A DNA stretch of 64,000 bases. It comes from Gammaproteobacteria bacterium. Lineage in GTDB: Bacteria > Pseudomonadota > Gammaproteobacteria > UBA4575. Where the stretch lies: NCBI GenBank assembly GCA_965222615.1, contig CBDCUI010000009.1, forward strand, positions 1 to 64,000. The letters run 5' to 3'. Made by a program: the position numbers and the translations under genes. Below the pieces are notes generated by a model, which did not search any database, was not told where the DNA came from, and worked only from the letters and a program-made list of their open reading frames with translations. This document shows, one piece after another, positions 11,047 through 40,886 of the stretch. Every line of letters starts with the position of its first letter. Position 1 is the stretch's first letter.

Positions 11047-11152
11047 AAGAGCCTCGGAAGATAAAAGGTCAAAAATTGCAGAATACTTGTAGTTACCAAA
11101 GTGCGTTAAATTTATAAAATTTTCTGTGATATCTTGATATTTCTACATTCCA

Positions 11153-11908
11153 GTGTTTTTTTCTGCCGATAAAATCAAGGCCTTCGCAATTCATCTTGCC
11201 ATCAGTGCAACCATTGTAGGCATTGTATTTATATTAATTTTCTTTTTTTGGTATCCAAAACCTTTCTTTGAAGCCAACGGGGCATGGACTGTATTACGCG
11301 TATTAGTAGGTGTTGACCTGGTAATGGGGCCATTGCTGACCTTAATATTATTTAAGAAAGGTAAGAAAGGCTTGGTATTTGATATGTGCATGATTGCTGC
11401 AATACAGCTTGCAGCACTAGTATATGGAATACACGTGATTTATGGAGAGCGCCCCTATTACTTGGTATTTGCAGTCGATCGATTTGAAGTAGTGGGCCGT
11501 GTAGAAATTGATGAGTCAAAAATTAAATATCCAGAGTTAAGAGATAAACCCAATGAAGGTCCAATTTTAGTGTTTGCCGATTTTCCTGAAGATCAAGAGG
11601 AGCGCAACGACTTTTTGTTTGAAGTGGTTACGCAAGGCAAACCCGATCTTGAAAGGCGTCCCGAATATTACAAACTTTATCTTCCAAACAAAGAAAAAGT
11701 GATAGAGAAAGGCAGAAAATTAACAGAACTAATAGAGAAAGATAATAAGAATAAAATCATCGTAGAAAAATTTCTTAAAGGGTATAAAAACAAGGAGGAT
11801 GATTTAGTATTTTTACCGTTGATAGGCAAAAATACCGATATGGCTTTAGTGTTAGATAAAACTACGGGCTTGCCTGTCGATGGGATCTCGGTAGATCCAT
11901 GGATTTAA
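11153..11908 (+). CDS. TfpX/TfpZ (FimB-like) type IV pilin accessory protein
   Basis: AFAIHL..S, WYP.PF, VDLVMGPLLTL, LVFAVDRFEVV. Confidence 0.8.
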   Translation: MFFSADKIKAFAIHLAISATIVGIVFILIFFFWYPKPFFEANGAWTVLRVLVGVDLVMGPLLTLILFKKGKKGLVFDMCMIAAIQLAALVYGIHVIYGERPYYLVFAVDRFEVVGRVEIDESKIKYPELRDKPNEGPILVFADFPEDQEERNDFLFEVVTQGKPDLERRPEYYKLYLPNKEKVIEKGRKLTELIEKDNKNKIIVEKFLKGYKNKEDDLVFLPLIGKNTDMALVLDKTTGLPVDGISVDPWI

Positions 11909-25691: not shown

Positions 25692-25831
25692 TCGGGGTAG
25701 CTAGTCCCTTCCTAGTTTATCTGAAACTTCTATTGGAAAAATTCAATCGAGTTTGAATCGATTGGGTTAGTCGTAAATCTTTATAGTCAGTGATTTATGT
25801 AAATGTCATTCAATAAGTAGATATAATTTGA

Positions 25832-26239
25832 TTATTCATCAAGTAACTGGATAAATTCATCTATTTCTTTCTCGCTTATATGGCCATCTATTAAATCTCC
25901 TATTTCATCAAGTCTTGCAATGGCTTCAATAATTATTTCTTCATGCTCATTTTCATAGTCTATATCTATCGGCTTAGTTGGTGTTTTATCATTTGACGAA
26001 AAATAGCCTCTTCTAATGAAAGATGCCCATTTTTGAACATCTTCTTCACTAACATTTTCATTTCTAAAGTTTTCTAGAACAGTAATTATATTTTTCCTTG
26101 TAAGAATAATTGTCGGTAATTTATTAAATAACTTAATAAGTTCATAATGATTAGTATTTGCAAAAATGCTGACTTTTGAGATATCACCTTTAATGAAATT
26201 TAAAAGATCATTTGTTAGTAATTTGTTATTGTCCACCAT
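25832..26239 (-). CDS. Candidate immunity protein for cassette 5
   Basis: ATG26239 overlaps the 3' end of the toxin gene; small, acidic, no signal peptide. Confidence 0.7.
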   Translation of the reverse strand: MVDNNKLLTNDLLNFIKGDISKVSIFANTNHYELIKLFNKLPTIILTRKNIITVLENFRNENVSEEDVQKWASFIRRGYFSSNDKTPTKPIDIDYENEHEEIIIEAIARLDEIGDLIDGHISEKEIDEFIQLLDE

Positions 26240-27137
26240 GAATAAATTTCCTTTCAATTACATTACCATCCGGACTTATTGTGTCTTTAAACTCTCTTAC
26301 AATTTTTCCATTAGAGTCGACATCTTGTATAAATCTTTTCCCAAAACCTTCATTTTTTGCAGGAGTAAAAAACTCGAATCTCTTTCCACCATCAGGTAAA
26401 TCGGTAATAGTAAAATCCTTACTCTTAGTTTTACTTGCACCTTTAAAAAAGCGGTTGGCGGCTTTACCAAGGTCTCCACCTAATGCTTTTCTAGCTTCAT
26501 CTCTACTGGCAAACTTGATTCCAGCTTTTAAACCAACAGCTCCTATACCAAGTATTTTTAAAATCCCACCTCCAGGGACTAAGTTAATAGGATCACTAAC
26601 GACTCCATCCACGACATCGGCGCTAGTAGCTGCACCTTCTCCAAATTTTTCGAACGCATTACCCACTGACTCACCTGGAAGTTCTCCATCACCTAAAACT
26701 TCCCGCACTGCATCACGGCTATCCTCTCCATTAGGGTCTACATATTTATATGGGTTGTTAATTACTAATGCATAACGATTAAATGAATGTATATTATCTG
26801 AGCTAAACCCAACCGGATCCACCGCCATAAACCGCCCAATTTTAGAATCACAATAGCGAGCTCCAAGATACGTTAAGCCAGTCGCATCATCTAAGGGCTT
26901 GCCCGTATGCCATTGTCGATTATTTTTAGATTTGGGGTCCTTTTCCACCCGTTCCCCAAAAGGCATATATTCTTCCTGCCACAGAAGGTTTCCATTCTCA
27001 TCGGTAGCTGCCACCGGTGAGCCCAATAAATCATTGTGGTAATAGGTGACGAGTACGTCAGCTTGTATACTCGCCACCAAACAGGTTGAGATGAACAGGT
27101 AGAGAAGTGATTTAATGAATGGCTTCATTATTTTCAT
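26226..27137 (-). CDS. Cassette 5: signal peptide + Rhs core + beta-rich toxin-like C-terminus
   Basis: ...LVASIQA|DVLVTYYHNDLLGSP...GRFMAVDPVG...NNPYKYVDPNG|E, then a unique CT. Confidence 0.88.
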   Translation of the reverse strand: MKIMKPFIKSLLYLFISTCLVASIQADVLVTYYHNDLLGSPVAATDENGNLLWQEEYMPFGERVEKDPKSKNNRQWHTGKPLDDATGLTYLGARYCDSKIGRFMAVDPVGFSSDNIHSFNRYALVINNPYKYVDPNGEDSRDAVREVLGDGELPGESVGNAFEKFGEGAATSADVVDGVVSDPINLVPGGGILKILGIGAVGLKAGIKFASRDEARKALGGDLGKAANRFFKGASKTKSKDFTITDLPDGGKRFEFFTPAKNEGFGKRFIQDVDSNGKIVREFKDTISPDGNVIERKFIHGGQ

Positions 27138-27221
27138 CAGTTATTTACTAATGTAGTACTGATATTAATTAAGTGTATGGAAATAAAAAGTGCATTTGGC
27201 TACATCAGTTAACCAGTACGA

Positions 27222-27611
27222 CTATTCAAGTATATAAATGTCAATGTCTAAAGCAGCTCTGATTGATGCAGCAAATTGTATTAATTCAGTATTAAAAAAT
27301 AATTCAGGCACAGAATTATTTTCTACATTTACGATGCAAGATAAATCTACTTCTATATCATTTGGTAACTTTTTTAAACTTAAAATTTGTTTATCAAGAG
27401 CTGACATCATGCGTTTCCCGGCTGATGATAGAGACGAATCGGTGAATTCAAGTTGACAGCCATTATCTTTATGGCGGTTTTTTGCTAATGGGTGAACCAA
27501 ATCACCACAATTCCAAGTCTTGGAAGGTTTGAAGTTTACTACTTTGTTAATTTGCTCAGAAGATAAATTATTGCTTGAAAATATTAAACGAAGTTTTACT
27601 TCTGAAGGCAT
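27222..27611 (-). CDS. DUF4279-like candidate immunity protein for cassette 4
   Basis: ATG27611 lies just after the toxin stop. PSKTWNCGD...PELFFNTELIQFAASIRAALDIDIY matches the recalled DUF4279 pattern. Confidence 0.7.
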   Translation of the reverse strand: MPSEVKLRLIFSSNNLSSEQINKVVNFKPSKTWNCGDLVHPLAKNRHKDNGCQLEFTDSSLSSAGKRMMSALDKQILSLKKLPNDIEVDLSCIVNVENNSVPELFFNTELIQFAASIRAALDIDIYILE

Positions 27612-27615
27612 ACTA

Positions 27616-28449
27616 TTATAAATCTTTAAGGTTGATTCCAGTTTCTTCGCCTGGGCCACTTCCGTCTTTTGGTTTGATAATAACATTTCCTTTCTTATCC
27701 TTAAATAAATCTAATTTGCCAGTTCTTTTCCCTCCTTTTAGTTCTTCAGGGTCAATATCATTGTCTTTCAGTTTTTTAATATCTCCTTTCGTTAGTTTCC
27801 CTAAATCACCTTTATTGCTTGAAGTATCTGAGTCTTTCTCGCTATTACTATCGCCATCACCATCATCAGCTGATTCATTGAGTACACCAGGAAATGTTCC
27901 AGATGAAATGCTTCCAGAGTTATTGCCAATAATTTCAGCAGTGTTATCTAGTGCATTTTTAGCTGTGATAAATGTAAGTGCAGATAAAGTAAGAACACCA
28001 AGACAACTTAGAGGAGTTACGCAGAGTATAAGCTGACTAAACTCCCCATCCGGATCTACATATTTATACGGATTATTATTAACTAAAGCATAGCGGTTGA
28101 AAGAGTGCATATTGACAGGATCCACACCAACCGGATCCATCGCCATAAACCGCCCAATCTTAGAATCACAATAGCGAGCCCCAAGATACGTTAACCCAGT
28201 CGCATCATCTAAGGGCTTACCGGTATGCCACTGACGATTATTTTTAGATTTGGGATCCTTCTCCACCCGTTCCCCGAAGGGCATATATTCTTCCTGCCAC
28301 AGAAGGTTTCCATTCTCATCGGTAGCTGCCACCGGTGAGCCCAATAAATCATTGTGGTAATAGGTGACGAGTACATCAGCTTGTACACTTGCCATTAAAC
28401 AGGTTGAGAGTAAGGTGTAGAAAAACGCATTAATTATTTTTTTCATCAT
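27616..28449 (-). CDS. Cassette 4: signal peptide + Rhs core + Ntox33-like toxin
   Basis: MMKKIINAFF...VQA|DVLVTYYHND...VDPDG|E; CT KLKDNDIDPEELKG...DLFKDKKGNVIIKPKDGSGPGEETGINL. Confidence 0.88.
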   Translation of the reverse strand: MMKKIINAFFYTLLSTCLMASVQADVLVTYYHNDLLGSPVAATDENGNLLWQEEYMPFGERVEKDPKSKNNRQWHTGKPLDDATGLTYLGARYCDSKIGRFMAMDPVGVDPVNMHSFNRYALVNNNPYKYVDPDGEFSQLILCVTPLSCLGVLTLSALTFITAKNALDNTAEIIGNNSGSISSGTFPGVLNESADDGDGDSNSEKDSDTSSNKGDLGKLTKGDIKKLKDNDIDPEELKGGKRTGKLDLFKDKKGNVIIKPKDGSGPGEETGINLKDL

Positions 28450-28489
28450 TTTTATAGCTTTACAATTTCTAGTTTGACATTGTATTGGA

Positions 28490-28625
28490 GTAGAGCTCAA
28501 AAAGTAGTTTGAGTGAGATTTTGCGGTGTGGTCGTCACGAAGGAATATATATGTCGTTGTCCGCTACCATGTTCATGACATGATACCAATTGCCTGGAAA
28601 TTCAAATACGTAATTGGCGGAACAT
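28490..28625 (-). pseudogene. Decayed N-terminus of a RAYT/IS200-like Y1 transposase (copy A)
   Basis: Frameshifted MFRQLRI/EFPGNWYHVMN/GSGQRHIY...HRKISLKLLFEL. Confidence 0.65.
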
Positions 28626-28674
28626 GAGCAGGTCATATCACAACTTATTCTATAACATAAACATAGATTCGACC

Positions 28675-29448
28675 TTATAGCTTATTTTGAAGTTCTTTTA
28701 GTTTATTTTGGGCTCGTTTGTTATCAGGATCAGCTAATACAGCATTTTTAAGGTCTTCAAGTGCTTGACTTAAATTACCAAGCCCTATTTGAGCTTCACC
28801 TCTCATGCATAATGTCCACGAGTCATTGGGATTTCGATCAATTGCAGAATTTAGATAGTGAAGTGCATCCTCATATTTATTTTTTTCTAAACTCAATATT
28901 CCCAAATTGTAATATGGAGAAGAATAATCACTTTTCAATTCGATTGCGTGTTTTAAATTTTTAAAGGCATCAGATGTATTACCGACTTTGCTCAATGCAT
29001 ATCCAAGGCTATTAAAAGCTTCTGCTAATTCTGGATTTAGCTCTATTGCATAAGTGTAATCCTTGATAGCAGCTTCAAAATTTTTTTCATCTAAAAAAGT
29101 ATTACCGCGATTTAAATAACAATCTGCATCATTAGGAGATAGTTTTATTGCAAAATTATAGTCTTCTCTTGCTAGGGCATATTTTCTTTTTAGCCGATAA
29201 GCGATTCCACGATTTATATAGCCATCGATTTCATCAGGAGAAATTTCTATTGCTTTAGTAAAGTCTTCTATTGCTTTATCTAAGTTACTTGTTTTTAAAT
29301 AAGAATTTCCACGAAAATTATATGAATCACTTACTGGGTCATAGCCTATTAACTTGGTAAATACTTTGATGCATTTTGTATATTGTTCACTGTTATAAAG
29401 ACTGATTGCTTCGTTTAATATATCAGTTCTACGATCATTAACCGTCAT
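28675..29448 (-). CDS. TPR protein, candidate immunity for cassette 3
   Basis: Consecutive 34-aa repeats (Y.NRG.....A..D...AI.L.P); directly downstream of the toxin gene. Confidence 0.85.
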   Translation of the reverse strand: MTVNDRRTDILNEAISLYNSEQYTKCIKVFTKLIGYDPVSDSYNFRGNSYLKTSNLDKAIEDFTKAIEISPDEIDGYINRGIAYRLKRKYALAREDYNFAIKLSPNDADCYLNRGNTFLDEKNFEAAIKDYTYAIELNPELAEAFNSLGYALSKVGNTSDAFKNLKHAIELKSDYSSPYYNLGILSLEKNKYEDALHYLNSAIDRNPNDSWTLCMRGEAQIGLGNLSQALEDLKNAVLADPDNKRAQNKLKELQNKL

Positions 29449-29509
29449 AGTTTTCTTTTTTAAATTGAATAATCAGTATACTAATAAAAACATAATATTT
29501 GTTATATGA

Positions 29510-30382
29510 CTATCCTCCATTTTTAGACTTTGATTCACGTTTCTTTTGTTTAAGCTCATTTTTTCGTCTATTTCTCTCTAGGTCAGCATCTAGAGTGCTA
29601 ATATCACCTTCTTTACCTCTGTTTTTAGCTTTTTGTTTTTTTCTTTTATCTTGAGCTTTAGTAATTGAATCTAAATTGTCAGAAAGAGACCCAATTTCGT
29701 CGTCAGTTCCAGTTTTAATTCCTTGTTTAAGCTTAGAGTCTGATTTTGATATATCATCGATTTGCGGTAAAGGTTTTTCACTGCTACTAGAATCACCGTC
29801 ATCTTCACTATTTGATTCACTAAATACACCTAAGCCAGAGAAAAATTCACCTATGCCTTCAAGGGCTCTACGTTTTCCCTCTTGATCTCTTTGGAGCTCA
29901 AGTCCTCCAGCTACAAGAAGAATAACAATACCTAGCGGAATTGTCTGCGCAAGTTCCCCATCCGGATCTACATATTTATACGGATTATTATTAACTAAAG
30001 CATAGCGGTTGAAAGAGTGCATATTGACAGGATCCACACCAACCGGATCCATCGCCATAAACCGCCCAATCTTAGAATCACAATAGCGGGCTCCAAGATA
30101 GGTTAAGCCCGTTGCCTCGTCTAAAGGTTTGCCGGTATGCCATTGTCGATTATTTTTTGATTTGGGATCCTTCTCCACCCGCTCGCCAAAAGGCATGTAT
30201 TCTTCCTGCCACAACAGGGTTCCATTCTCATCCGTGGCGGCCACTGGTGAGCCCAACAAATCATTGTGGTAATAGGTAACGAGTACGTCAGCTTGTACAC
30301 TCGCTACTAAACAGGTTGAGAGTAATATGTAGAAAAAAGATTTAATAAGTTCTTGCATTTTTTTATACTTGATTAATTTCAT
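29510..30382 (-). CDS. Cassette 3: signal peptide + Rhs core + Lys/Arg-rich CT ending in GG
   Basis: ATG30382 (ATGA overlap with the upstream relic), VQA|DVLVTYYHND, VDPDG|E. Confidence 0.88.
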   Translation of the reverse strand: MKLIKYKKMQELIKSFFYILLSTCLVASVQADVLVTYYHNDLLGSPVAATDENGTLLWQEEYMPFGERVEKDPKSKNNRQWHTGKPLDEATGLTYLGARYCDSKIGRFMAMDPVGVDPVNMHSFNRYALVNNNPYKYVDPDGELAQTIPLGIVILLVAGGLELQRDQEGKRRALEGIGEFFSGLGVFSESNSEDDGDSSSSEKPLPQIDDISKSDSKLKQGIKTGTDDEIGSLSDNLDSITKAQDKRKKQKAKNRGKEGDISTLDADLERNRRKNELKQKKRESKSKNGG

Positions 30383-30638
30383 GGAGAAGCAACTCCTTCG
30401 ACATTCAGTTCTGCTACACAAGTCCACTCTCTATTGAGTGCCTCATTCAACGCTACTAATCGTATGTAGCATCCGGTCTTAGTCGTAAACGTAACTCTTT
30501 TCTCAGATGCATTATTTGCAAAACTATCCATGGCACGGGTGTGTCCCAATTCGTTCCATCTGTACTGACATAAAGCTGATAGTCTTCGATACGACCGTTC
30601 GATTGCGTAGCACGGGGTAAATAACGAAACGCATCAAG
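30379..30638 (-). pseudogene. Relic C-terminal half of a discoidin / F5-8 type C (CBM32-like) domain
   Basis: LDAFRYLPRATQSNGRIEDYQLYVSTDGTNWDTPV, a frameshift at ~30535, then AMDSFANNASEKRVTFTTKTGCYIRLVALNEALNREWTCVAELNVEGVASP*. Confidence 0.8.
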
Positions 30639-30858
30639 GATTATTGTTTACTAAAGAATATCTATTAAAAGTTTGAGGATCTAGTTCAATTCAAATTCAA
30701 TAACAGGGAAAGATCAGAGAATTCAAATTTTTCTAATGAATGTTGTTCTATAACAGTTTAATTACGTATTCGCTGCACACAACCAAGTCACAATTTTTAC
30801 AAGCTTAACAGTGTTAGAATAACTTATGGCTGTCTTTATATAGATATAGTAAATATAG

Positions 30859-31122
30859 TTATTTATTGTAAGGTAATTTTATATTTTGCTCTACTAAAGT
30901 AGTTTCATATGTATTAATTAAAGCTTCTAAATCGTCCTTTAATTGTGAAATATTGTCTAATGCATTGTCGAAATTATGGTTATTGATTTCTTTCTTTGTA
31001 TTCTTAACTAAAGTTAACATACTAAATAAAGTATCACCTTGAATTACAATGCCTGGAAATTCTCTTGTAGATAATTTGACAATGGGCGAATTTGAAATAT
31101 TCTTTAATATTGTTATTTTCAA
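30859..31122 (-). CDS. Small candidate immunity protein for cassette 2 (DUF6959-like)
   Basis: SNSPIVKLSTREFPGIVIQGDTL...YETTL....IKLPY; family recalled, not searched. Confidence 0.7.
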   Translation of the reverse strand: MKITILKNISNSPIVKLSTREFPGIVIQGDTLFSMLTLVKNTKKEINNHNFDNALDNISQLKDDLEALINTYETTLVEQNIKLPYNK

Positions 31123-31138
31123 TTTTATTTTTTAACTC

Positions 31139-32086
31139 TTATGGATCAAATTTTATAAATGGTTTATTGGTATCTACAGGTCCATCTAAGAAATCCTGTC
31201 CTGTCGGTCCTCTAGTACCAATTTCACCACCACCTTGTCCTTTTGGCAATTTTGATTTTGCTTTCTTTCTAATTTTCCTATTTATTGGCTCTATAATAAA
31301 GTCAAAATCTGAATCTATACTATTGCCCCCCTGCTTAGCCGCACGGCTTCCTACTAATGTCACACTAGAATCAGTTTCTGAAACAAACAGTTGTATTGCA
31401 TTACGCTCAGCCTCAGATAGATTATCAATATCAGCTCCACCTCCAGCTGTTATTTTTTTGCCTACATCATCGATAAAGGGGCCACCAATCTTGGTTAGTA
31501 GTTTTCCTGTTCCTCCTAGTATTATTCCTGCCCCAGCTTCGATAACACCATCTTTAGCGGCTTCACCTGCAGTTTTTTCTCCACGTGCAACATCCGAAAT
31601 ATTGCTTCCAATTGCAAAACCAGTGACTCCTACCCCCAGGAGTTTCAAAGTTGGAGGAATTAGCGCAAGAAAACCAGCTTCTCCATTTGGGTCGATAAAT
31701 TTTTGAGGATTGTTGTTTACTAGTGCATATCGATTAAAAGAGTGAAAGCTAGATTCTCCAAATCCAACCGGATCCACCGCCATAAACCGCCCAATCTTAG
31801 AATCACAATAGCGAGCTCCAAGATAGGTTAAGCCCGTTGCTTCATCTAAGGGTTTGCCGGTATGCCACTGACGATTATTTAGTGATTTGGGATCCTTCTC
31901 CACCCGCTCGCCAAAAGGCATGTATTCTTCCTGCCACAACAGGGTTCCATTCTCATCCGTGGCGGCCACTGGTGAGCCCAACAAATCATTGTGGTAATAG
32001 GTAATCAGTACATCGGCCTGAACACTCGCCACTAAACAGGTTGAGAGTAATATGTAGAAAAATGCATTAATTATTTTTTTCATCAT
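31139..32086 (-). CDS. Cassette 2: signal peptide + Rhs core + nucleotidyltransferase-like CT
   Basis: VQA|DVLITYYHND, IDPNG|E, CT motif VTLVGSRA...DSDFDFII. Confidence 0.88.
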   Translation of the reverse strand: MMKKIINAFFYILLSTCLVASVQADVLITYYHNDLLGSPVAATDENGTLLWQEEYMPFGERVEKDPKSLNNRQWHTGKPLDEATGLTYLGARYCDSKIGRFMAVDPVGFGESSFHSFNRYALVNNNPQKFIDPNGEAGFLALIPPTLKLLGVGVTGFAIGSNISDVARGEKTAGEAAKDGVIEAGAGIILGGTGKLLTKIGGPFIDDVGKKITAGGGADIDNLSEAERNAIQLFVSETDSSVTLVGSRAAKQGGNSIDSDFDFIIEPINRKIRKKAKSKLPKGQGGGEIGTRGPTGQDFLDGPVDTNKPFIKFDP

Positions 32087-32124
32087 TCTTATAGCTTTAC
32101 AATTTCTAGTTTGACATTGTATTA

Positions 32125-32263
32125 GAGTGAAGCTCTAGAAGCAGTTCGAGACAGAGTTTGCGATGTGGTCGTTATGAAGGGTTATATGTATCGGTATCCA
32201 GCACCACGATTCATAACATGATACCAGGCTCTTGGAAATTCGAGTACGTAACAAACAGGACAT
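32125..32263 (-). pseudogene. Decayed N-terminus of a RAYT/IS200-like Y1 transposase (copy B)
   Basis: MSCLLR/LEFPRAWYHVMNRGAGYRYI*...HRKLCLELLLEL; homologous to 28490-28625. Confidence 0.72.
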
Positions 32264-32318
32264 GAACAAATTATATTATCATCTGCTCTGTACAATAGAC
32301 TTGACGTCAATACTTTAC

Positions 32319-32930
32319 CTATATTTTATTTTGCTGATCATTTACCCAGAGAAAGGCTGCTTGTGCTTCCTTATATTCTTCAGGGTATTGATCAGATCTG
32401 AAAATTTCGAGTGAACTTTTTAAGTATTTGTGGGACTCTTTTAACATATTTTTTATTTCTTTTTGTTCAAATTCACTTGAAAAATTAAGTACCAATTCAT
32501 TAAGGGAATACGCAATATAAGCTTTTATGCTAGCAAGCAATTCTTTGTCCGCTTCATAATATTTGCCAATAAGCGCTTGTTTGTAATGGTAAATACAGCG
32601 TGTAAGATTGTTGACGCGATTATTTTGGGGGCGTTCGTAATAAGCCCAACCCAAATTTTTCTGAAGCTTGCTCCATTCGTCAGATAGTGGTTCGAGTTGA
32701 GAAATCAATTGTTCAAAGATCTGAATAGCTTCATCACAAGTATTCTTGAAATTATCTTCTACATTTAGCAAAGCAATTGCTAGAACTTTCTTAGCGTAGT
32801 AAAGCTTATCGGTTTTCAATGTTGGTATATGCTGGATAGCATTTCTGCATAGTTCAATACATTTTTCCCACTCTTGATTGAGATAGGCTTCTTTAATTTT
32901 ATCTAGATACAATGATGATTCTTTTTTCAA
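32319..32930 (-). CDS. Helical TPR-like protein, candidate immunity for cassette 1
   Basis: WSKLQKNLGWAY...AL and similar helical repeats; directly downstream of the toxin gene. Confidence 0.72.
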   Translation of the reverse strand: MKKESSLYLDKIKEAYLNQEWEKCIELCRNAIQHIPTLKTDKLYYAKKVLAIALLNVEDNFKNTCDEAIQIFEQLISQLEPLSDEWSKLQKNLGWAYYERPQNNRVNNLTRCIYHYKQALIGKYYEADKELLASIKAYIAYSLNELVLNFSSEFEQKEIKNMLKESHKYLKSSLEIFRSDQYPEEYKEAQAAFLWVNDQQNKI

Positions 32931-32955
32931 TTATTTACCTAAATCTTTGTTCAGT

Positions 32956-33813
32956 TTACCCGCCTTCATTCATTCGATTTTTAATCCTTTGTTTTGTTTT
33001 TCCTCCTGGTTGATCAGGATAAGCGTCCTTGATTCCTCGTTCTTTATCGATCAATTCATCTACACCACCTTGCTTTTGATCTTTATGTGCTTGGGTCATA
33101 TCACCAAAATGCTCATCTCGCTCCTTTTGTTTTTTTGTTCTTTCTTTATCATGCTTACGTCGTTCTTTTGCGCTTAGTTTTTTAGGAGTCTCTTCTTTGA
33201 TTTCATCCGCACTAGTATCATTAGATTCCCCATCGTCACCACTATTTGATTCATTATTGAATGCACTGCTACCTGAAATATCAGGACCGATCGAGATAGT
33301 GTTTGGGTTTCTATCTAATATGTCTAGAGTGTTCTGAATAGTATTTACGGCAACAGCTGCAACGACTACTGTAAATGCTAGAAACCCAAATACTACTACT
33401 GCGTTCTCCCCATCCGGATCTACATACTTATACGGATTATTATTAACAAAAGCATAGCGGTTGAAAGAGTGCAGATTGGCCGGGTCCACACCAACTGGAT
33501 CTACCGCCATAAACCGCCCAATCTTAGAATCACAATAGCGGGCTCCAAGATAGGTTAAGCCCGTTGCCTCGTCTAAAGGTTTGCCGGTATGCCATTGTCG
33601 ATTATTTTTTGATTTGGGATCCTTCTCTACTCGCTCGCCAAAAGGCATATATTCTTCCTGCCACAACAGGGTTCCATTCTCATCCGTGGCGGCCACTGGT
33701 GAGCCCAACAAATCATTGTGGTAATAGGTAATCAGTACATCGGCCTGAACACTCGCCACCAAAAAGATTGAGAGCAGAATGTAGAAAAATGCATTAATTA
33801 TTTTTTTCATCAT
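32956..33813 (-). CDS. Cassette 1: signal peptide + Rhs core + charged CT ending in GG
   Basis: MMKKIINAFF...VQA|DVLITYYHND...VDPDG|E; starts 60 bp after the shell stop. Confidence 0.88.
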   Translation of the reverse strand: MMKKIINAFFYILLSIFLVASVQADVLITYYHNDLLGSPVAATDENGTLLWQEEYMPFGERVEKDPKSKNNRQWHTGKPLDEATGLTYLGARYCDSKIGRFMAVDPVGVDPANLHSFNRYAFVNNNPYKYVDPDGENAVVVFGFLAFTVVVAAVAVNTIQNTLDILDRNPNTISIGPDISGSSAFNNESNSGDDGESNDTSADEIKEETPKKLSAKERRKHDKERTKKQKERDEHFGDMTQAHKDQKQGGVDELIDKERGIKDAYPDQPGGKTKQRIKNRMNEGG

Positions 33814-33872
33814 TCTTATATCTTTACAATTTCTAGTTTGACATTGCATTAGTGTGAAAAGGAAATTCGATA

Positions 33873-36800
33873 TTAGTTACCACCTGAAGTCACATCCACT
33901 TTATCCAAAGCCATGCGTTCACTACCTGAATCAGGATTAGGACCTGTTGCTGTGAAGCGCAAATACTTGGTACCACTGGTGGCGAACGTAGTCGACATGG
34001 ATAAAGTTGGGAAGGAAGCACCACTGCTTACCGTATCATTCATTACACCAATTTGGGTGTACGGACCAGCTAAGCTCTCGGCCGCTTCAACTTGAAAAGT
34101 GCCACGTGATACATTCAACTGATACTGAAGATCAAGGCTATAAGTGCCTGCACTACTGACGGTAATCGGGAAAGTGACAAATTCACCGATCGCATTGCTG
34201 TGGTAGAGGAGGAACTGTCCGTTGCTGGCGCCAGTATTAGACTTAATAGAAGTGGTGGTGGTGCCATCACTATCGGCAATGGTGAGGTTTTCAAATTCAA
34301 ACGTAGTGGTTTGCCCTGCGGTCTGAATGGTCCAGGTAAAGGAAGCGTTATCGGTGCCACCATTGCCATCGTCTACTGTAACAGTGGTATTAAACGTATT
34401 TGCAGTGGTTACAGTACCGGTAATGAGGCCGGTGGCACTATTAATGCTCAATCCTGTAGGTAGTCCGGTTGCGCTGTAAGTTAAGGTGTCTCCGGCATCC
34501 GGATCACTGGCTTGAATTTGTACACTCACACTGCCGCCTTCGGTGTGAGTTTGATTGCCAGGGTTCGTAATGGTGGGGGGATTATTACTGCCACCACTAG
34601 TTTGTACATCCCAAGTAAAGCTGGCAGTGTCGCTGCCGCCATTGCCATCATCGACAGTTACGATGGGGTTAAAGGTTCCCGCTGTCGTTACCGTACCATT
34701 GATAAGTCCCGAACTGTTGTTAATACTTAATCCAGTAGGTAAGCCCGTTGCACTGTAAGTTAAGGTGTCTCCAGCATCCGGATCACTGGCTTGAATTTGT
34801 AAACTCACACTGTCGCCTTCGGTATGTGTTTGTGTGCCCGGATTGGTGACTGTCGGGGGAGTGTTGTTAGGACCTCCACCGCCCGAGGTTACATCCACTT
34901 TATCCAAGGCCATGCGTTCACTACCTGAATCAGGATTAGGACCTGTTGCTGTGAAGCGCAAATACTTGGTACCACTGGTGGCGAACGTAGTCGACATGGA
35001 TAAAGTTGGGAAGGAAGCACCACTGCTTACCGTATCATTCATTACACCAATTTGGGTGTACGGACCAGCTAAGCTCTCGGCCGCTTCAACTTGAAAAGTG
35101 CCACGTGATACATTCAACTGATACTGAAGATCAAGGCTATAAGTGCCTGCACTACTGACAGTAATCGGGAAAGTGACAAATTCACCGATCGCATTGCTGT
35201 GGTAGAGGAGGAACTGTCCGTTGCTGGCGCCAGTATTAGACTTAATAGAAGTGGTGGTGGTGCCATCACTATCGGCAATGGTGAGGTTTTCAAATTCAAA
35301 CGTAGTGGTTTGCCCTGCGGTCTGAATGGTCCAGGTAAAGGAAGCGTTATCGGTGCCACCATTGCCATCGTCTACTGTAACAGTGGTATTAAACGTATTT
35401 GCAGTGGTTACAGTACCGGTAATGAGGCCGGTGGCACTATTAATGCTCAATCCTGTAGGTAGTCCGGTTGCGCTGTAAGTTAAGGTGTCTCCGGCATCCG
35501 GATCACTGGCTTGAATTTGTAGACTCACACTGCCGCCTTCGGTGTGAGTTTGATTGCCAGGGTTCGTAATGGTGGGGGGATTATTACTGCCACCACTAGT
35601 TTGTACATCCCAAGTAAAGCTGGCAGTGTCGCTGCCGCCATTGCCATCATCGACAGTTACGATGGGGTTAAAGGTTCCCGCTGCCGTTACCGTACCATTG
35701 ATAAGTCCCGAACTGTTGTTAATACTTAATCCAGTAGGTAAGCCCGTTGCACTGTAAGTTAAGGTGTCTCCAGCATCCGGATCACTGGCTTGAATTTGTA
35801 AACTCACACTGTCGCCTTCGGTATGTGTTTGTGTGCCCGGATTGGTGACTGTCGGGGGAGTGTTGTTAGGACCTCCACCGCCCGAGGTTACATCCACTTT
35901 ATCCAAGGCCATGCGTTCACTACCTGAATCAGGATTAGGACCTGTTGCTGTGAAGCGCAAATACTTGGTACCACTGGTGGCGAACGTAGTCGACATGGAT
36001 AAAGTTGGGAAGGAAGCACCACTGCTTACCGTATCATTCATTACACCAATTTGGGTGTACGGACCAGCTAAGCTCTCGGCCGCTTCAACTTGAAAAGTGC
36101 CACGTGATACATTCAACTGATACTGAAGATCAAGGCTATAAGTGCCTGCACTACTGACGGTAATCGGGAAAGTGACAAATTCACCGATCGCATTGCTGTG
36201 GTAGAGGAGGAACTGTCCGTTGCTGGCGCCAGTATTAGACTTAATAGAAGTGGTGGTGGTGCCATCACTATCGGCAATGGTGAGGTTTTCAAATTCAAAC
36301 GTAGTGGTTTGCCCTGCAGTTTGAATAGTCCAGGTAAAGGAAGCGTTATCGGTGCCACCATTGCCATCGTCTACTGTAACAGTGGTATTAAACGTATTTG
36401 CAGTGGTTACAGTACCGGTAATGAGGCCGGTGGCACTATTAATGCTCAATCCTGTAGGTAGTCCGGTTGCGCTGTAAGTTAAGGTGTCTCCGGCATCCGG
36501 ATCACTGGCTTGAATTTGTAGACTCACACTGCCGCCTTCGGTGTGAGTTTGATTGCCAGGGTTCGTAATGGTGGGGGGATTATTACTGCCACCACTAGTT
36601 TGTACATCCCAAGTAAAGCTGGCAGTGTCGCTGCCGCCATTGCCATCATCGACAGTTACGATGGGGTTAAAGGTTCCCGCTGCCGTTACCGTACCATTGA
36701 TAAGTCCCGAACTGTTGTTAATACTTAATCCAGTAGGTAAGCCCGTTGCACTGTAAGTTAAGGTGTCTCCAGCATCCGGATCACTGGCTTGAATTTGTAA

Positions 36801-39800
36801 ACTCACACTGTCGCCTTCGGTATGTGTTTGTGTGCCCGGATTGGTAACTGTCGGGGGAGTGTTGTTCGATGAATTTGGATCTGTACCATTACGTATTTCA
36901 ACACAATCAGGAATTTGATCGCTATCGGAATCCGTTGAGCAGTCATCCCTTCTTGCAAAAAGCGAATTATTTAAATAAATATAATCTGTGTAATCTCCTG
37001 TCTGTGGATTCTTTTCGTGGAGTAACTGTCCATTTTGGCCATAGACTGAATATTTAATAATGTTTCCATTGTCACGTTCTATGGTGCGACGGTTATTGGC
37101 ATCATATTCATAATCCATATCTAAGCTTGATGAATCAACTGAAATCAGATTAGAGAGATCATCGTAGACGAAAGTTTGCATATTAGTTCCACGTTGGGTA
37201 ATGTTTCCGTACGCATCATAAGTAATGTTGTTGTAGTCACTCATCCCAGAAACTGAAGTTAACCTATTGGAAGCATCATAACTATAGGTTCTTACTGCCC
37301 CATCGATTAGCTTAGAGGTAATATTTCCAGTAGCGGAATAAGTGGCAGACCAGTTTAAATCACCTGATATGGAAGTTAGCCGATCTGCAGCGTCATAACT
37401 TAAAGCTTTATTTGTGGATCGTACTTGGTCATTAATATTTGTAATATTTGCTTTACCATCATAGGTGTAGGTTAGATTAACAATATCTGAGGCGCCACCC
37501 ACAAAACTTTGTAGAGTTTTTGGGAAAAGACGGTTGTTAAACTGAATATCTGAGACTGCACCATTTGCATATAAGATTGAATCGGGCCACCCAGTTAAAT
37601 GTGGTGTTACAGTAGAAGTGTTCCCATCAAAGTTTACATTACGAGGCCTACCAAGATTATCAGGATTGTAGGCAACTGTGATTCCGCTACCAACTCCAGT
37701 TGCACCTGGATAGGTTATGGTATTTAGAAAATCTAAACTACTATAAGTATAGTTCAACTTCATAGAATCTGTACCCATAGTGAGTTTTTCTTCAGTTAAA
37801 TTATCATTTGGGTCATAGATATAGTCCCAAGTAATGCTATCTTTAATAGATTTAGTGACATTATCATTTGCATCATAGATAAAGGTAACGTTTGGTGAAC
37901 TTGATCCGGGGTAGCGAATAAACTCCAATCGATTTAAATCATCATATTCAAATGTAGTGGTGCCAGAAGCACCAACTTTTCTCGAGGTTAAATTTCCCGA
38001 TGCATCACGACCAAGAATAGTAGTGCCCGTCTCAGGGTTAACGATAGAAGTTAAATATTTTCTAGAGTCATAGCCATATGCTCTATTCATACCACCTTGG
38101 TTGACCGCAGTAATTTGATCTAAGTTGTTTCTAGTAATAGTGGTTGGAATAATTGTGGTTCCACTTGAATTTTTTACATTAATACCAGTGAGTGAACGTT
38201 TGTTGGAATCGCCATAGGACCGATAGATTAGATCTGTATCTAGTCCACGTTCATTGGTTATACGCACAGTATTGTTATTAGTTAAATAGTTATAACTGAC
38301 ATTAACATTTGCACCATTTTCCGGATTTGGTTTTGAGATATTAGTAATACGATCAAGCGCATCGTAACTAAATGATGTGGGTCGATTAGGATTAGTGCCT
38401 TGATAAGGTTGTGCGGTCTGTATTAAACGTCCAGTAGCATCATAAACTGATTCATTTGTGATCGTAATTCCACGTGCTAAGTCTGAGGTTTCTCTTTTAA
38501 CCACTCGGCCAAATCCATCATAGCGCAAAATGTCTCTAAACTTATTAGCCCCACGCGTGAGGGTTCTTCTTGCTTGGCTGGAATCATTCACACTCCAAAC
38601 TATATTGACCGAATCATTGTGAGGTGGATCAATTAAGGTCAGTCGCTTTAAACTATCGTAGTCAAAATTTGTTTGAAACCCGCGACCGTTTCTTTCCCAA
38701 TTAATAGTGCCGTCTTGTTGATTGACATCACGCGTGATGATTTTACCTTCTGGATGATTTTCTGTTTCTGGAATGCCGCGGAAAAAGTTACTGAATGTAC
38801 GAATTTTTCCTCTGGGGTCCGTAATCTGGTTTACGTTTCCGTATAAGTTATCGTATTGAAATGAATTTGTTACACCATAGCGATTTTCTGATGTAACTTG
38901 TCCTTTATTGTTAAACGTACGAGTAATATTTCCAGGAATACCAGAAACTGCTTCTGTTTTCGTTAAACGCGTAAACCAATTGAATAAATTTGCAGTTTCA
39001 AAGGTTAAATCGGTAGTTTTAGTAGGGGTAGTAGCACTACCATTTTTACCAGTTTCAATAATTTTTTTGGCGTTACCATAGAAGTCATAATCAGCCAGTG
39101 GAAATTGTGTAATGTATGTAGCGCCGTCACGTACTGTATCTACACGTGTAAGTAATGGTGCAAAGACATCGTTATCGAATTTTGTTTCTCGAAATGGCCT
39201 TTTATGTAGTTGGTCCGAAATTTTTGATTTGGCACTTGCATCATTTTGCCAAGTCATCGTTTCTGTTTGTAAAGTTACATTTGATAAGCTTTTAATTTGT
39301 TTCTCTTGCATTAGACCCACTTTCCATAAATCACCAGTTTGATTTATGGTGTGAAAACTGAAGTGTTTGTATACAAATATCCCATGTGGTGCCGTTACAG
39401 TCGTAGTTTGTGGAGTCCCGGGGGCGGCACTAAATGGCACATTAAAATCATACGTCCATGTGCCAGGTGTGATGGATTGTCCACTCACTGCTCTTGTTTT
39501 AATGGACGTAGTCAAATCATTCGTATTAAAGCAAGTCCCTTGAGTATTGTTTGGTTCAAAACAAACTTTTTGATAGGTGTAATCAATGTTACCGTTCCAC
39601 GGCGTTGTGATTTGTTTTAATGCATGAGCACCTGCGCCAGTTGGGTTGCTTCCAGGCGTACCATTTCCATCATAATAGTTATAGCGCCAGCTAGAAAAAT
39701 CTTGACGCCTAACTCTTGTTAAGTGATAAAACGTTCCTGATACTCCAGAAACTAAACTGTATTCATAGATCCATTGAGATAAAATATCTGAAATCATTGT

Positions 39801-40670
39801 GACACGTGCATACGCTTGTGATGCATCCGCATATGTTAAGGTAACTGGATTGCCTTGTTGTACTCCACTAATATTTTTCATCGTAAGTGTATTCACGAGG
39901 TGCCCATGGCTTGGGCGGTTTATATAGGTGATATCAATATGGTTGCCAGAAGAGTGAATGATTCGAGTGGTGTAAAGTGTACCGGTTCCTGTATTTCTGG
40001 CACCCATTTCATATATTTTTCCATCGGGTGATGTGATGACTAATCCTTGAAATGATTGGCCAGCGCCGTCAAGTCCACTAGGCTGTGTAAAGTTTTGACA
40101 TCTAGCTCGCCAACGATCTGTAGTGATGTAATCGTTTGTAGTAATACCTGCTTGAGTCAAACTGGAACGATATAAAATTCTGCGACTGCCATCTTCACGT
40201 TCAAAAACCGGGCTATTTTCAGTGGTTTCCGTAGATTGAACTTGTGGACAAGTAGTGAAACTATTTACGTTTAATACCCGACCATAATTAATTGTCCAGC
40301 CTACACCTGCTCCAGTACTTGCAGTTCCAGATTCACCGCTAGTCAGCGAACCATTTTGTGGTGGTGTGTATACTCTACGTACTTCTAAATTAAATCCTGC
40401 ATGACCTGGAATAAATAAATCGACTTGTTGAACATTTAAAGCCCCAGAAAAATTATCAATAAAATCTACATCATTCTGATTTAGATAATCTCTAAAAGGA
40501 TAGAACCCTGGTTCGGAATAAAAATCAGGGATATGATTGGCGTACGTATTCGATGCTACTAATAAAAGTAAAAGCAGAACACGAAAAGTAAATTTAAAAG
40601 TTTTTAAAAATGGTTGTTTGCGATTAAGTAATTTGAAAATATAGACACACCAACCAGAATAGTTTTTCAT
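33873..40670 (-). CDS. Secreted YD-repeat (Rhs shell) protein lacking the Rhs core, with a TSP3-like motif and 3x(Ig-Ig-CBM-like) tail
   Basis: Signal peptide ...LLLLLLVASNTYA, many YD repeats (YDALDRIT, YDDLNRL, YDAADRL, YDANNRR), DSDSDQIPDCVE..GTDPN, He_PIG-like LTYSATGLPTGLSIN..TGLITGT. No DPxG core motif. Confidence 0.9.
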   Translation of the reverse strand: MKNYSGWCVYIFKLLNRKQPFLKTFKFTFRVLLLLLLVASNTYANHIPDFYSEPGFYPFRDYLNQNDVDFIDNFSGALNVQQVDLFIPGHAGFNLEVRRVYTPPQNGSLTSGESGTASTGAGVGWTINYGRVLNVNSFTTCPQVQSTETTENSPVFEREDGSRRILYRSSLTQAGITTNDYITTDRWRARCQNFTQPSGLDGAGQSFQGLVITSPDGKIYEMGARNTGTGTLYTTRIIHSSGNHIDITYINRPSHGHLVNTLTMKNISGVQQGNPVTLTYADASQAYARVTMISDILSQWIYEYSLVSGVSGTFYHLTRVRRQDFSSWRYNYYDGNGTPGSNPTGAGAHALKQITTPWNGNIDYTYQKVCFEPNNTQGTCFNTNDLTTSIKTRAVSGQSITPGTWTYDFNVPFSAAPGTPQTTTVTAPHGIFVYKHFSFHTINQTGDLWKVGLMQEKQIKSLSNVTLQTETMTWQNDASAKSKISDQLHKRPFRETKFDNDVFAPLLTRVDTVRDGATYITQFPLADYDFYGNAKKIIETGKNGSATTPTKTTDLTFETANLFNWFTRLTKTEAVSGIPGNITRTFNNKGQVTSENRYGVTNSFQYDNLYGNVNQITDPRGKIRTFSNFFRGIPETENHPEGKIITRDVNQQDGTINWERNGRGFQTNFDYDSLKRLTLIDPPHNDSVNIVWSVNDSSQARRTLTRGANKFRDILRYDGFGRVVKRETSDLARGITITNESVYDATGRLIQTAQPYQGTNPNRPTSFSYDALDRITNISKPNPENGANVNVSYNYLTNNNTVRITNERGLDTDLIYRSYGDSNKRSLTGINVKNSSGTTIIPTTITRNNLDQITAVNQGGMNRAYGYDSRKYLTSIVNPETGTTILGRDASGNLTSRKVGASGTTTFEYDDLNRLEFIRYPGSSSPNVTFIYDANDNVTKSIKDSITWDYIYDPNDNLTEEKLTMGTDSMKLNYTYSSLDFLNTITYPGATGVGSGITVAYNPDNLGRPRNVNFDGNTSTVTPHLTGWPDSILYANGAVSDIQFNNRLFPKTLQSFVGGASDIVNLTYTYDGKANITNINDQVRSTNKALSYDAADRLTSISGDLNWSATYSATGNITSKLIDGAVRTYSYDASNRLTSVSGMSDYNNITYDAYGNITQRGTNMQTFVYDDLSNLISVDSSSLDMDYEYDANNRRTIERDNGNIIKYSVYGQNGQLLHEKNPQTGDYTDYIYLNNSLFARRDDCSTDSDSDQIPDCVEIRNGTDPNSSNNTPPTVTNPGTQTHTEGDSVSLQIQASDPDAGDTLTYSATGLPTGLSINNSSGLINGTVTAAGTFNPIVTVDDGNGGSDTASFTWDVQTSGGSNNPPTITNPGNQTHTEGGSVSLQIQASDPDAGDTLTYSATGLPTGLSINSATGLITGTVTTANTFNTTVTVDDGNGGTDNASFTWTIQTAGQTTTFEFENLTIADSDGTTTTSIKSNTGASNGQFLLYHSNAIGEFVTFPITVSSAGTYSLDLQYQLNVSRGTFQVEAAESLAGPYTQIGVMNDTVSSGASFPTLSMSTTFATSGTKYLRFTATGPNPDSGSERMALDKVDVTSGGGGPNNTPPTVTNPGTQTHTEGDSVSLQIQASDPDAGDTLTYSATGLPTGLSINNSSGLINGTVTAAGTFNPIVTVDDGNGGSDTASFTWDVQTSGGSNNPPTITNPGNQTHTEGGSVSLQIQASDPDAGDTLTYSATGLPTGLSINSATGLITGTVTTANTFNTTVTVDDGNGGTDNASFTWTIQTAGQTTTFEFENLTIADSDGTTTTSIKSNTGASNGQFLLYHSNAIGEFVTFPITVSSAGTYSLDLQYQLNVSRGTFQVEAAESLAGPYTQIGVMNDTVSSGASFPTLSMSTTFATSGTKYLRFTATGPNPDSGSERMALDKVDVTSGGGGPNNTPPTVTNPGTQTHTEGDSVSLQIQASDPDAGDTLTYSATGLPTGLSINNSSGLINGTVTTAGTFNPIVTVDDGNGGSDTASFTWDVQTSGGSNNPPTITNPGNQTHTEGGSVSVQIQASDPDAGDTLTYSATGLPTGLSINSATGLITGTVTTANTFNTTVTVDDGNGGTDNASFTWTIQTAGQTTTFEFENLTIADSDGTTTTSIKSNTGASNGQFLLYHSNAIGEFVTFPITVSSAGTYSLDLQYQLNVSRGTFQVEAAESLAGPYTQIGVMNDTVSSGASFPTLSMSTTFATSGTKYLRFTATGPNPDSGSERMALDKVDVTSGGN
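33876..36866. repeat. Three near-identical 999-bp tandem repeats (35868-36866, 34869-35867, 33876-34868)
   Basis: The same text recurs at 999-bp spacing, and shadow ORFs fall at 34200/35199/36198. Only scattered substitutions. Confidence 0.97.
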
Positions 40671-40886
40671 GTGTTCCCCAAATAATTATCGTTTTTATTT
40701 CTAATGAAACTATTTACTCAATTATTATTTTTGTCAAGTTAAGTTAATTTGAAAGATTAGAAGTCAGTTAATATTTAACTTACAACTTATTGAGAAAACT
40801 CTATTTGTTTTATAGCGCCAATAAATTGGCGCATAAATTTTAAACTAAGAAAAAATATAATGACCGGAAATTGTAGTTAGGGTTTA

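Follow-up and report, generated by a model that had tools for sequence, protein, structure and literature searches.

We describe a toxin-type locus in a window of 64,000 nucleotides (nt), the first part of contig CBDCUI010000009.1 of a gammaproteobacterium (UBA4575). At 25832–40670, on the minus strand, eleven open reading frames (ORFs) all run in the same direction: a gene for a large YD-repeat protein of the Rhs type (the shell), and then five short genes for an Rhs core with a C-terminal toxin-type domain (the cartridges), each followed by a small ORF. Shell and core, which canonical Rhs proteins carry in one chain, are here two genes, each with its own signal peptide. All features of the locus lie on the minus strand:

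33873–40670, minus strand: shell gene, 2265 amino acids (aa), with signal peptide, SpvB-N-like plug, YD shell, TSP3-like linker and three repeats, each of two immunoglobulin-like (Ig) domains and a carbohydrate-binding-module (CBM)-like domain
36942–40538, minus strand: mature plug and YD shell, residues ~45–1243, ending ...YIYLNNSLFARRD, delimited by VIA structure matches
33876–36857, minus strand: three tandem 333-aa repeats (He_PIG/Big_9 twice, then CBM-like), from repeat and family searches
32956–33849, minus strand: cartridge 1, with signal peptide (probable start MMKK at 33813), Rhs core, hydrophobic segment and a C-terminal domain of unknown type
32319–32930, minus strand: candidate immunity gene 1, 203 aa, with neither signal peptide nor Pfam family above cut-off, named by position only
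31139–32086, minus strand: cartridge 2, with signal peptide, Rhs core and a C-terminal domain of unknown type (179 aa)
30859–31122, minus strand: candidate immunity gene 2, 87 aa, DUF6959 (6.8e-17)
29510–30427, minus strand: cartridge 3, with signal peptide (probable start MQELIK at 30358), Rhs core, hydrophobic segment and a C-terminal domain of unknown type
28675–29448, minus strand: candidate immunity gene 3, 257 aa, TPR repeats (TPR_1, 1.5e-47)
27616–28500, minus strand: cartridge 4, with signal peptide (probable start near 28446–28449), Rhs core, hydrophobic segment and Ntox33
27222–27686, minus strand: candidate immunity gene 4, 154 aa, DUF4279 (1.1e-8)
26226–27137, minus strand: cartridge 5, with signal peptide, Rhs core and a C-terminal domain of unknown type (165 aa)
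25832–26257, minus strand: candidate immunity gene 5, 141 aa, no family, named by position only
40709–40737, minus strand: best promoter-like site, TTGACA-17-AATAGT, just 5' of the shell gene (10/12 consensus matches)
25744–25764, minus strand: terminator-like hairpin past the last gene (7 pairs and a T run; consensus match only)

The shell protein opens with a signal-peptide-like segment (...RVLLLLLLVASNTYA|NH); this and all other signal peptides were called by eye and by a crude hydrophobicity/AXA rule. Family scans of the shell match RHS_repeat (PF05593, 2.9e-16) and YD_repeat_2x (TIGR01643, 8.7e-9), and find neither the Rhs core families PF03527 and TIGR03696 nor a beta-propeller family of the kind present in TcB. 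A model of residues 45–1244, built on a 25-sequence alignment (pLDDT 84.1, pTM 0.79), resembles solved cocoon structures of the Rhs and Tc types (Foldseek E ~1e-40; VIA Z 19–26 for 8qja, 8uy4, 8qjc, 7q97 and 8h8a, with Z 26.0 against 8qja_D), and its residues 26–282 resemble the SpvB/TcB N-domain 6p0x_A (Z 12.9). By these matches the predicted fold is that of a YD cocoon. They also locate its end. On Tse15 (8uy4_A, Z 24.4) the model ends at residue 1246, before the catalytic Asp 1369/1391 (positions as in the entry title); on TcdB2-TccC3 (6h6g) 1084 residues align at 3.6 Å and the alignment ends at residue 2037; and on YenC the model aligns to residues 4–570. In each of the three the end of the shell model falls just before the core.

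The sequence breaks at the same place. Three ordinary fused Rhs genes in the window's own genome read ...YVYLNHQPIAKLEHKKIYAIHTDRLGTS..., and the YD part of the shell terminates after the first motif of this reading, at residue ~1242–1243, while the cartridges begin with the second. Since fused Rhs proteins carry both motifs in one chain, the break falls precisely where the last strand of the shell gives way to the first strand of the core. The shell ends in a stop codon at 33873–33875, and shell and core are not the single polypeptide of canonical Rhs.

What follows the last shell strand in the same protein is an Asp-rich linker, which we take to be of the TSP3 type, and then the repeats. At 36858–36944 (residues ~1243–1271), directly past the last strand, stands a calcium-binding-type motif, 'D.D.D..PD..E...GT(D/N)P'; Asp-rich motifs also occur in the shell tails of two further loci (L012 and L045 in our numbering), and the closest shell homologue (P0122) lists PF18884. 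The tail proper consists of three 333-aa tandem copies (999 nt each, 98–100% identical). Each copy holds two He_PIG/Big_9 Ig domains (He_PIG 1.3e-107, six stretches) and a third domain that resembles carbohydrate-binding modules in sequence (7ehg_A MiXBM, 6.7e-8; xanthan lyase 6f2p, 1.8e-4; 2vzp CBM, 5.8e-3). The G+C content of the copies is 0.49, compared with ~0.37 around them, which suggests a history different from that of the rest of the shell gene. The number of the 999-nt copies could be misjudged in the assembly.

Downstream of the shell, the five cartridge ORFs of 294–315 aa each have their own start codon and a signal-peptide-like N-terminus. The hydrophobic stretch at each N-terminus closes with VQA|D or IQA|D and leads straight into DVL(V/I)TYYHNDLLGSP. 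All five contain an Rhs core (PF03527, ~5e-9 to 2e-8; TIGR03696, 65–69.5 bits with a cut-off of 32.5) in which the DPVG and NP...DP.GE motifs are invariant, and end in mutually unrelated C-termini. That of cartridge 4 is Ntox33 (E 1.1e-15 and 1.9e-16 in two scans); the other four match no Pfam family even at E ≤ 1, and the C-terminal domain of cartridge 2 has no PDB sequence match. The small ORFs after the cartridges, at the lengths listed above, have no signal peptide and are candidate immunity genes by position only. Elsewhere, at 10836–11198 of locus L021, an Imm33-like gene (5.9e-44) stands directly 3' of a signal-peptide cartridge, a family match that supports the toxin-immunity reading of such pairs.

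Most of this had been proposed from the letters alone, and the original prediction holds up well: the family scans agree with a 2265-aa, signal-peptide-bearing YD shell that lacks a core and continues into Ig/CBM repeats, the Ig and CBM-like domains of its tail are borne out by family and PDB sequence matches, and five genes downstream do combine a signal peptide (VQA|D or IQA|D), both Asp motifs, a C-terminus of their own and a small next gene. Shell and core-toxin are thus separate genes, each with a Sec-type signal by the crude rule. One detail needed correcting, namely the start of the mature cartridge, which had been given as VTYYH and is D-V-L-(V/I)-T-YYH.

In cartridges 1–4 the first ~20 codons past DPxGE, directly behind the predicted cleavage site, encode a strongly hydrophobic segment (33405–33340, 31678–31610, 29953–29890 and 28041–27970), followed by an acidic/Ser-rich linker and then the small C-terminal domain. 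The segment is present in 4/5 cartridges and in 45/109 relatives, and may help the freed toxin to enter or cross a membrane. The motif 'LLSTC' was considered as a lipoprotein signal; this was ruled out, since cartridge 1 lacks Cys and VQA|D suits signal peptidase I. Folded alone, a cartridge is modelled with confidence only in the signal-peptide helix and the first hairpins, the rest of the core reaching pLDDT 41–73 (pTM 0.25); the poor solo model is a weak hint that the cartridge needs a partner.

The arrangement is not confined to the window. A protein search with residues 1–137 of cartridge 2 returned 299 proteins of 173–552 aa at E ≤ 1e-5. Among the 120 matches listed, YYH.D..G.P begins at residue 23–56 in 109 of 115 motif carriers, and 113 of the 120 pass the crude signal-peptide rule. 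A profile made from an alignment of 48 of these 120 was searched against 1.84 billion cluster representatives and gave 5,848 core matches at E ≤ 1e-30, the best 150 of which are all 209–490 aa long (148 of them ≤350 aa); further cluster representatives from this search pass the signal-peptide rule in 104 of 109 cases. A genome scan with one genome per species yielded at least 548 confirmed stretches, of which the best 80 were taken and 77 loci kept, from Pseudomonas, Comamonas, Acidovorax, Thiodiazotropha, Hahella, Colwellia, Ferrimonas, Methylovorus and many metagenome-assembled genomes (MAGs). Their 131 core matches fall in short frames (98), in long frames (22) and at contig ends (11). At least 37 of the 77 loci (39 pairs) have a coreless shell, aligned up to query residues 1237–1256, with a core-bearing ORF next to it, and the pair is therefore not an accident of one genome. 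Of the shell's ten best homologues other than itself, only one lists PF03527. Complete signal-peptide cartridges also stand in arrays of two to five elsewhere (for example in L015, L079, L057, L061, L036 and L034), and headless fragments of the orphan type were seen in L023, L050 and L084.

The pairs differ mainly in what lies at the junction. In 12 of the 39, including four Pseudomonas loci, the shell ORF stops 2–6 residues past the last strand, and in 16 it continues into a tail of 200–2502 aa composed of Ig, cadherin, PKD, FN3, CBM_4_9, beta-propeller or CARDB domains. Four pairs have a long second ORF; Pfam scans of two of these (L017 and L030) give the order signal peptide, Ig/CBM, core, toxin, and L066, outside the 39 pairs, has the same layout. 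The extra domains are thus always found at the junction, either at the shell end or at the cartridge start. Clustering of 660 neighbouring ORFs revealed no conserved third gene near the pair, with no family in more than 5 loci and a PAS/GGDEF protein as the largest. From the sequence comparisons, the same gene pair with the same break is conserved across many Proteobacteria. A search of genomes for the pair had been suggested with the original prediction, which would have fallen if all homologues were single fused ORFs; they are not.

Such close spacing raises the question of whether shell and first cartridge are joined in translation, by frameshift or read-through, into a canonical single-chain Rhs. 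The frames do overlap or abut in many pairs, for example by -27 nt (stop-to-stop) in four Pseudomonas loci and by an ATGA shared between shell stop and cartridge start in Pseudomonas brenneri (L042). However, the gap from shell to core ORF ranges from -159 to +103 nt over the 39 pairs, with varying frame relation, and no slippery context was seen, none having been looked for. In the window a stop is followed by 23–59 nt before the next start. Joining would also bury a cleavable signal peptide inside the chain, and tails of up to 2502 aa would come between shell and core. We give this explanation next to no credence.

A second, distant case comes from a congener (G001), which has a 1534-aa signal-peptide shell ending YVYVDGQRLALFQP plus a tail of ~250 aa with no Pfam family. 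An overlapping 313-aa ORF follows, which reads TTHA|GLYFYHTNHLDTP and then core and toxin, and after it a Sel1-like ORF. A fused Rhs of the window's genome (G000) matches this shell at 50% identity along 650 aa, as far as its own residue 703, and matches the core at 54% identity from residue 707; the identities of the G001 pair to the window's shell and cartridge are only 28% and 30%. In a quick tree of 116 core domains, which excluded matches not spanning profile positions 4–108 and matches cut by a contig end, the G001 cartridge falls with the G000 fused Rhs, and the branch to the window's clade has 100% SH-aLRT support. From this placement and the identities, the same break occurs in two deep lineages of Rhs cores. 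Directly past the immunity gene of the G001 pair, at 9187–9678 of locus L011, the sequence reads as a REP-associated/IS200-like transposase-type ORF. Contig C8 of G000 carries, at about 539000–547789, a canonical fused Rhs that is divided among several reading frames (549, 530, 572, 521 and 959 aa), possibly a gene in decay, and the G001 split pair has its closest relative in the last piece of this gene. Two other fused Rhs of G000 (C9:140301–144725 and C8:174244–178962) are 64% identical to each other, and both start with a signal-peptide-like segment and then a Cys/Gly-rich motif, in a genome without a type VI secretion system (T6SS).

We also considered that the locus is a canonical Rhs gene that has decayed or been misassembled, through frameshift, insertion or repeat collapse, with non-functional products. 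Three 999-nt repeats at 98–100% identity are hard to assemble, and the C8 gene is an example of an Rhs of this genome spread over several frames. Public contigs exist from three runs (two samples of one study, from which the genome may itself derive). Where toxin and immunity sequence is unique, these contigs cover it and show 0 differences; they connect immunity gene 2 with the start of cartridge 3 (30308–31793) and immunity gene 4 with the start of cartridge 5 (27027–28072), and break at the repeated core segments. As no listed contig piece covers those segments or 33532–33910, the order of the cartridges and the junction of shell and cartridge 1 are not independently confirmed. Against decay or misassembly stand the zero differences in the unique parts, the same break, with tails of 15–2502 aa, in independent assemblies of many genera, a signal peptide before every core, and purifying selection on the copies. 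Such an origin is very improbable.

The selection acting on the cartridges bears on whether all of them matter. The five share 300-nt segments that are 81–92% identical and form one clade with 98% support in the quick core-domain tree. Over signal peptide and core (134 codons), all ten pairs show synonymous divergence (dS) of 0.28–1.14, non-synonymous divergence (dN) of 0.03–0.10 and a ratio of the two (ω) of 0.05–0.17. With ω this low at dS of up to 1.14 in a single clade, each copy has been kept in the lineage as a translated protein, and the substitution pattern indicates that all five cartridges are held under purifying selection. The original prediction had set the cartridges apart from silent orphan modules, and the at least 37 of 77 loci, the second lineage and these ω values agree that this is a selected architecture. 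Upstream of the cartridges, homology extends over ~45 nt among cartridges 1, 2 and 4 and over ~170 nt between 2 and 4; no remnant of the shell 3' end was found upstream of any of the five.

A split system could nevertheless make and load only the cartridge next to the shell, with cartridges 2–5 as a reserve that reaches first place by recombination through a shared segment of ~440 nt. The 81–92% identical segments could serve such recombination, a single shell gene stands before five cartridges, and the only good promoter-like site is the one before the shell, a weak hint because such sites are not above chance in the region (38 found, 46.2 expected; the terminator scan is also at chance). One further cartridge, in L038, follows a piece of the shell 3' end, as in an orphan, and orphan displacement is known for fused Rhs (bioRxiv 10.1101/2025.05.08.652813, in the part available to us). 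On the other side, all five cartridges have their own start and signal peptide, the ~45-nt leader is conserved in three and no shell remnant precedes them; ω and dS in one clade speak for the retention of each copy as a translated protein; the consensus scan places no minus-strand terminator-like site between the genes; and arrays of two to five complete signal-peptide cartridges recur in other genomes. We regard the reserve as unlikely. If shell and cartridge do assemble in trans, it is reasonably probable that production and loading extend beyond the first cartridge.

The remaining alternative separates the two components. The cartridges would be stand-alone Sec-exported toxins with the core as a self-cleaving pro-domain, and the shell an unrelated upstream adhesin. 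It draws on arrays of signal-peptide cartridges with no shell within 10 kb in L015, L019, L037, L052 and L054, on a shell profile that comes back empty in 2/5 of those genomes, and on the adhesin-like domains that the shell has of its own. At least 37 of 77 loci have the pair side by side, in many cases with overlapping frames, which is harder to square with it, as is the fact that shells have lost precisely what cartridges carry, in two lineages. In 12 of 39 pairs the shell lacks any adhesin part. Moreover, the bacteriocin Bcn-A of Xanthomonas perforans is described as needing both its ORFA and its ORF4 (PMC7259588, as far as the accessible text goes), and the low confidence of the model of the isolated core points weakly the same way. 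Separate action of the two therefore appears improbable.

We conclude, from the sequence evidence, that the locus is a real feature: a two-gene Rhs arrangement that is widespread and apparently undescribed. It departs from canonical Rhs, which is a single chain, and from orphan modules, which have no start. That the split chains assemble in trans is likely, and the full reading, a split, trans-assembling and Sec-exported Rhs toxin system, is probable to a lesser degree. In such a system, shell and cartridge would cross the inner membrane separately and unfolded through Sec and co-fold in the periplasm, the first strand of the core extending the last strand of the shell and with it the spiral. 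The core would then plug the shell and enclose the C-terminal toxin, and its aspartyl protease would cleave at DPxG|E. The loaded particle would leave by a type II secretion system (T2SS) and act as a diffusible bacteriocin, with the Ig/CBM tail binding a surface glycan of the target and the small downstream genes conferring immunity. The strongest form of this proposal is an unrecognised class in which an empty YD shell and several interchangeable cartridges are paired only in the periplasm and released by the T2SS as mixed cocoons with one glycan-binding address; we advance it tentatively.

The genome is compatible with this route. No match to TssC (PF05943) or PAAR (PF05488) was found in the 99.79% complete genome, VgrG and EagR not having been searched by family, which extends to the genome the earlier remark that the window holds no T6SS gene. 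The linkage to PAAR or VgrG and the T6SS in the genome that characterize a T6SS effector were not found. A true GspD is present (593.8 bits, cut-off 351), and all fused Rhs proteins of the genome also start with signal-peptide-like segments. In P. brenneri (354–5490 of L042) the end of a T2SS cluster, comprising a pseudopilin, GspL, GspM_b, a GspC-like protein and a secretin, stands directly 5' of the split pair and may be a dedicated secretion link. Pseudomonas sp. ABY48 has its secretin ORF in common with this locus, and a GspE gene lies upstream of the pair in L023. We consider the T2SS the probable outer-membrane route.

Several observations weigh against the split system. A T2SS gene stands beside the shell in only 3 loci (L042, L018 and L023), a count based on 25 loci scanned with Pfam and on L018 through the shared secretin ORF. 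Of 75 upstream ORFs selected in 23 loci, 55 were scanned with Pfam and included a single T2SS gene (GspE in L023), the omitted ORFs being core ORFs, those of L035 and L042, which were scanned separately, and a few others in scanned loci. No shell is in view in 39 of the 77 loci, many of them short contigs or array interiors, and none lies within the full 10-kb flanks of the five loci named above. In those five genomes the shell profile found one family-type shell, weak YD matches in two and nothing in two (these are MAGs of unknown completeness). As signal-peptide cartridge arrays lack a shell in the flanks or genomes of some loci, cartridges may also work without one. The 77 loci, as the best 80 of at least 548 matches to a query that contains a signal peptide, were picked by likeness to it and are no census or population estimate, which biases their ratio of split to fused genes. 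The signal-peptide rule itself is crude. A toxin of 140–180 aa would have to get inside a shell made from a separate chain, and with a single shell gene for five cartridge genes the stoichiometry is in question. Finally, Bcn-A needs an ORF2 (124 aa) that has no counterpart in the window, as is also the case for its ORF3, and its membership in the split family follows from the published description (in the part accessible to us) rather than from a sequence comparison.

If the proposal is right, thousands of short 'RHS repeat-associated core' proteins that are currently annotated as orphan tips or fragments would be the exported products of complete genes, and toxin-less 'RHS repeat proteins' would in many cases be shells for such cartridges. 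The loading of cargo into a YD cocoon would be post-translational and intermolecular, and with shell and plug-plus-cargo as separate chains, these loci would offer a natural system for studying how cargo enters the cocoons of Rhs, Tc and teneurin proteins. Should several cartridges load one shell, a toxin repertoire could shift without recombination. The loci also point to contact-independent Rhs bacteriocins, released by Sec and T2SS, in bacteria without T6SS.

In the literature searched, from which supplements and subscription journals were outside the scope, we found no description of a split Rhs with two signal peptides. The closest published system is Bcn-A, for which we rely on the accessible text of Marutani-Hert et al. 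2020 (PMC7259588). It was mapped to five ORFs. ORFA is a 1398-aa Rhs protein, and ORF4 encodes 290 aa with a signal peptide, transmembrane helices at 148–198 and similarity to WapA/RhsA/Tc. Activity requires ORFA, ORF2 and ORF4, and ORF5 gives immunity. The supernatant is active, chiefly in its >100 kDa fraction, whereas no activity was detected in the cell fraction, and a mutant of xpsD, the T2SS secretin, loses activity. In the authors' interpretation ORFA is the toxin and ORF4 an accessory, and BcnA is described as having no signal sequence. Compared by the paper's description only, a large Rhs ORF, a signal-peptide ORF of ~290 aa and an immunity ORF appear to be common to Bcn-A and the window, and the description of ORF4 fits the cartridge layout, including the hydrophobic segment past DPxGE. 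Unlike the window, Bcn-A has two extra small ORFs in between and a single cartridge. No Xanthomonas is named among the listed matches of our cartridge and shell searches. To judge from the published account, Bcn-A looks like a probable unrecognised experimental case of the split architecture, which would explain why it needs a second signal-peptide ORF.

Canonical Rhs proteins (Tse15, RhsA, RhsP and the Sec-exported WapA) have in common with the window a YD cocoon fold, a core with two Asp motifs, a polymorphic C-terminal region of toxin type (Ntox33 in one cartridge) and a downstream immunity-type gene. They are single chains, whereas the window has two genes, each with a signal peptide, and it differs from the T6SS Rhs effectors in having no PAAR or TssC in the genome. 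It also has extra Ig/CBM domains at the junction, on the shell C-terminus, where L017, L030 and L066 have them on the cartridge N-terminus instead. Export by signal peptide and T2SS is among the trafficking modes given for RHS toxins by Zhang et al. 2012 (PMC3482391, accessible part), and a 2025 preprint (10.1101/2025.05.08.652813) predicts T2SS-linked Rhs families in Xanthomonas and Ralstonia. In the part of it available to us, the preprint assigns all Rhs sequences of ≤350 aa to the orphans, mentions neither signal peptides nor a split, and documents the displacement of classical orphans for fused Rhs. Like the window, orphan modules are arrays of core-end, toxin and immunity genes downstream of a main gene, with a shared 5' segment. 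Classical orphans have no start or export signal, in contrast to the window's five, which are complete signal-peptide genes under purifying selection. The bacterial teneurin-like proteins reported in 2026 (PMC13018210) are likewise YD shells predicted for Sec and signal peptidase I that enclose a toxin, with an immunity gene next to them, but they are single chains with FN-plug and NHL domains, and no split is described.

The two-chain principle itself is that of the Tc BC cocoons (TcdB2-TccC3 and YenB-YenC), in which two encoded chains form the particle and the second bears the core and a hypervariable toxin. TcB and TcC need co-expression. The division is placed differently: TcC brings ~570 shell residues, whereas the second chain of the window has only a ~110-aa core and no YD repeats, and the modelled shell would span the whole of TcB and the shell part of TcC. 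Both chains of the window have Sec signals, unlike Tc BC, and its immunity-type genes point to bacterial targets, again unlike Tc. The system is thus like a Tc BC cocoon in which the break has moved to the boundary between shell and core, set in a gammaproteobacterial genome between housekeeping genes (glycolate-oxidase-like, Na/H exchanger, DUF302 and PutA).

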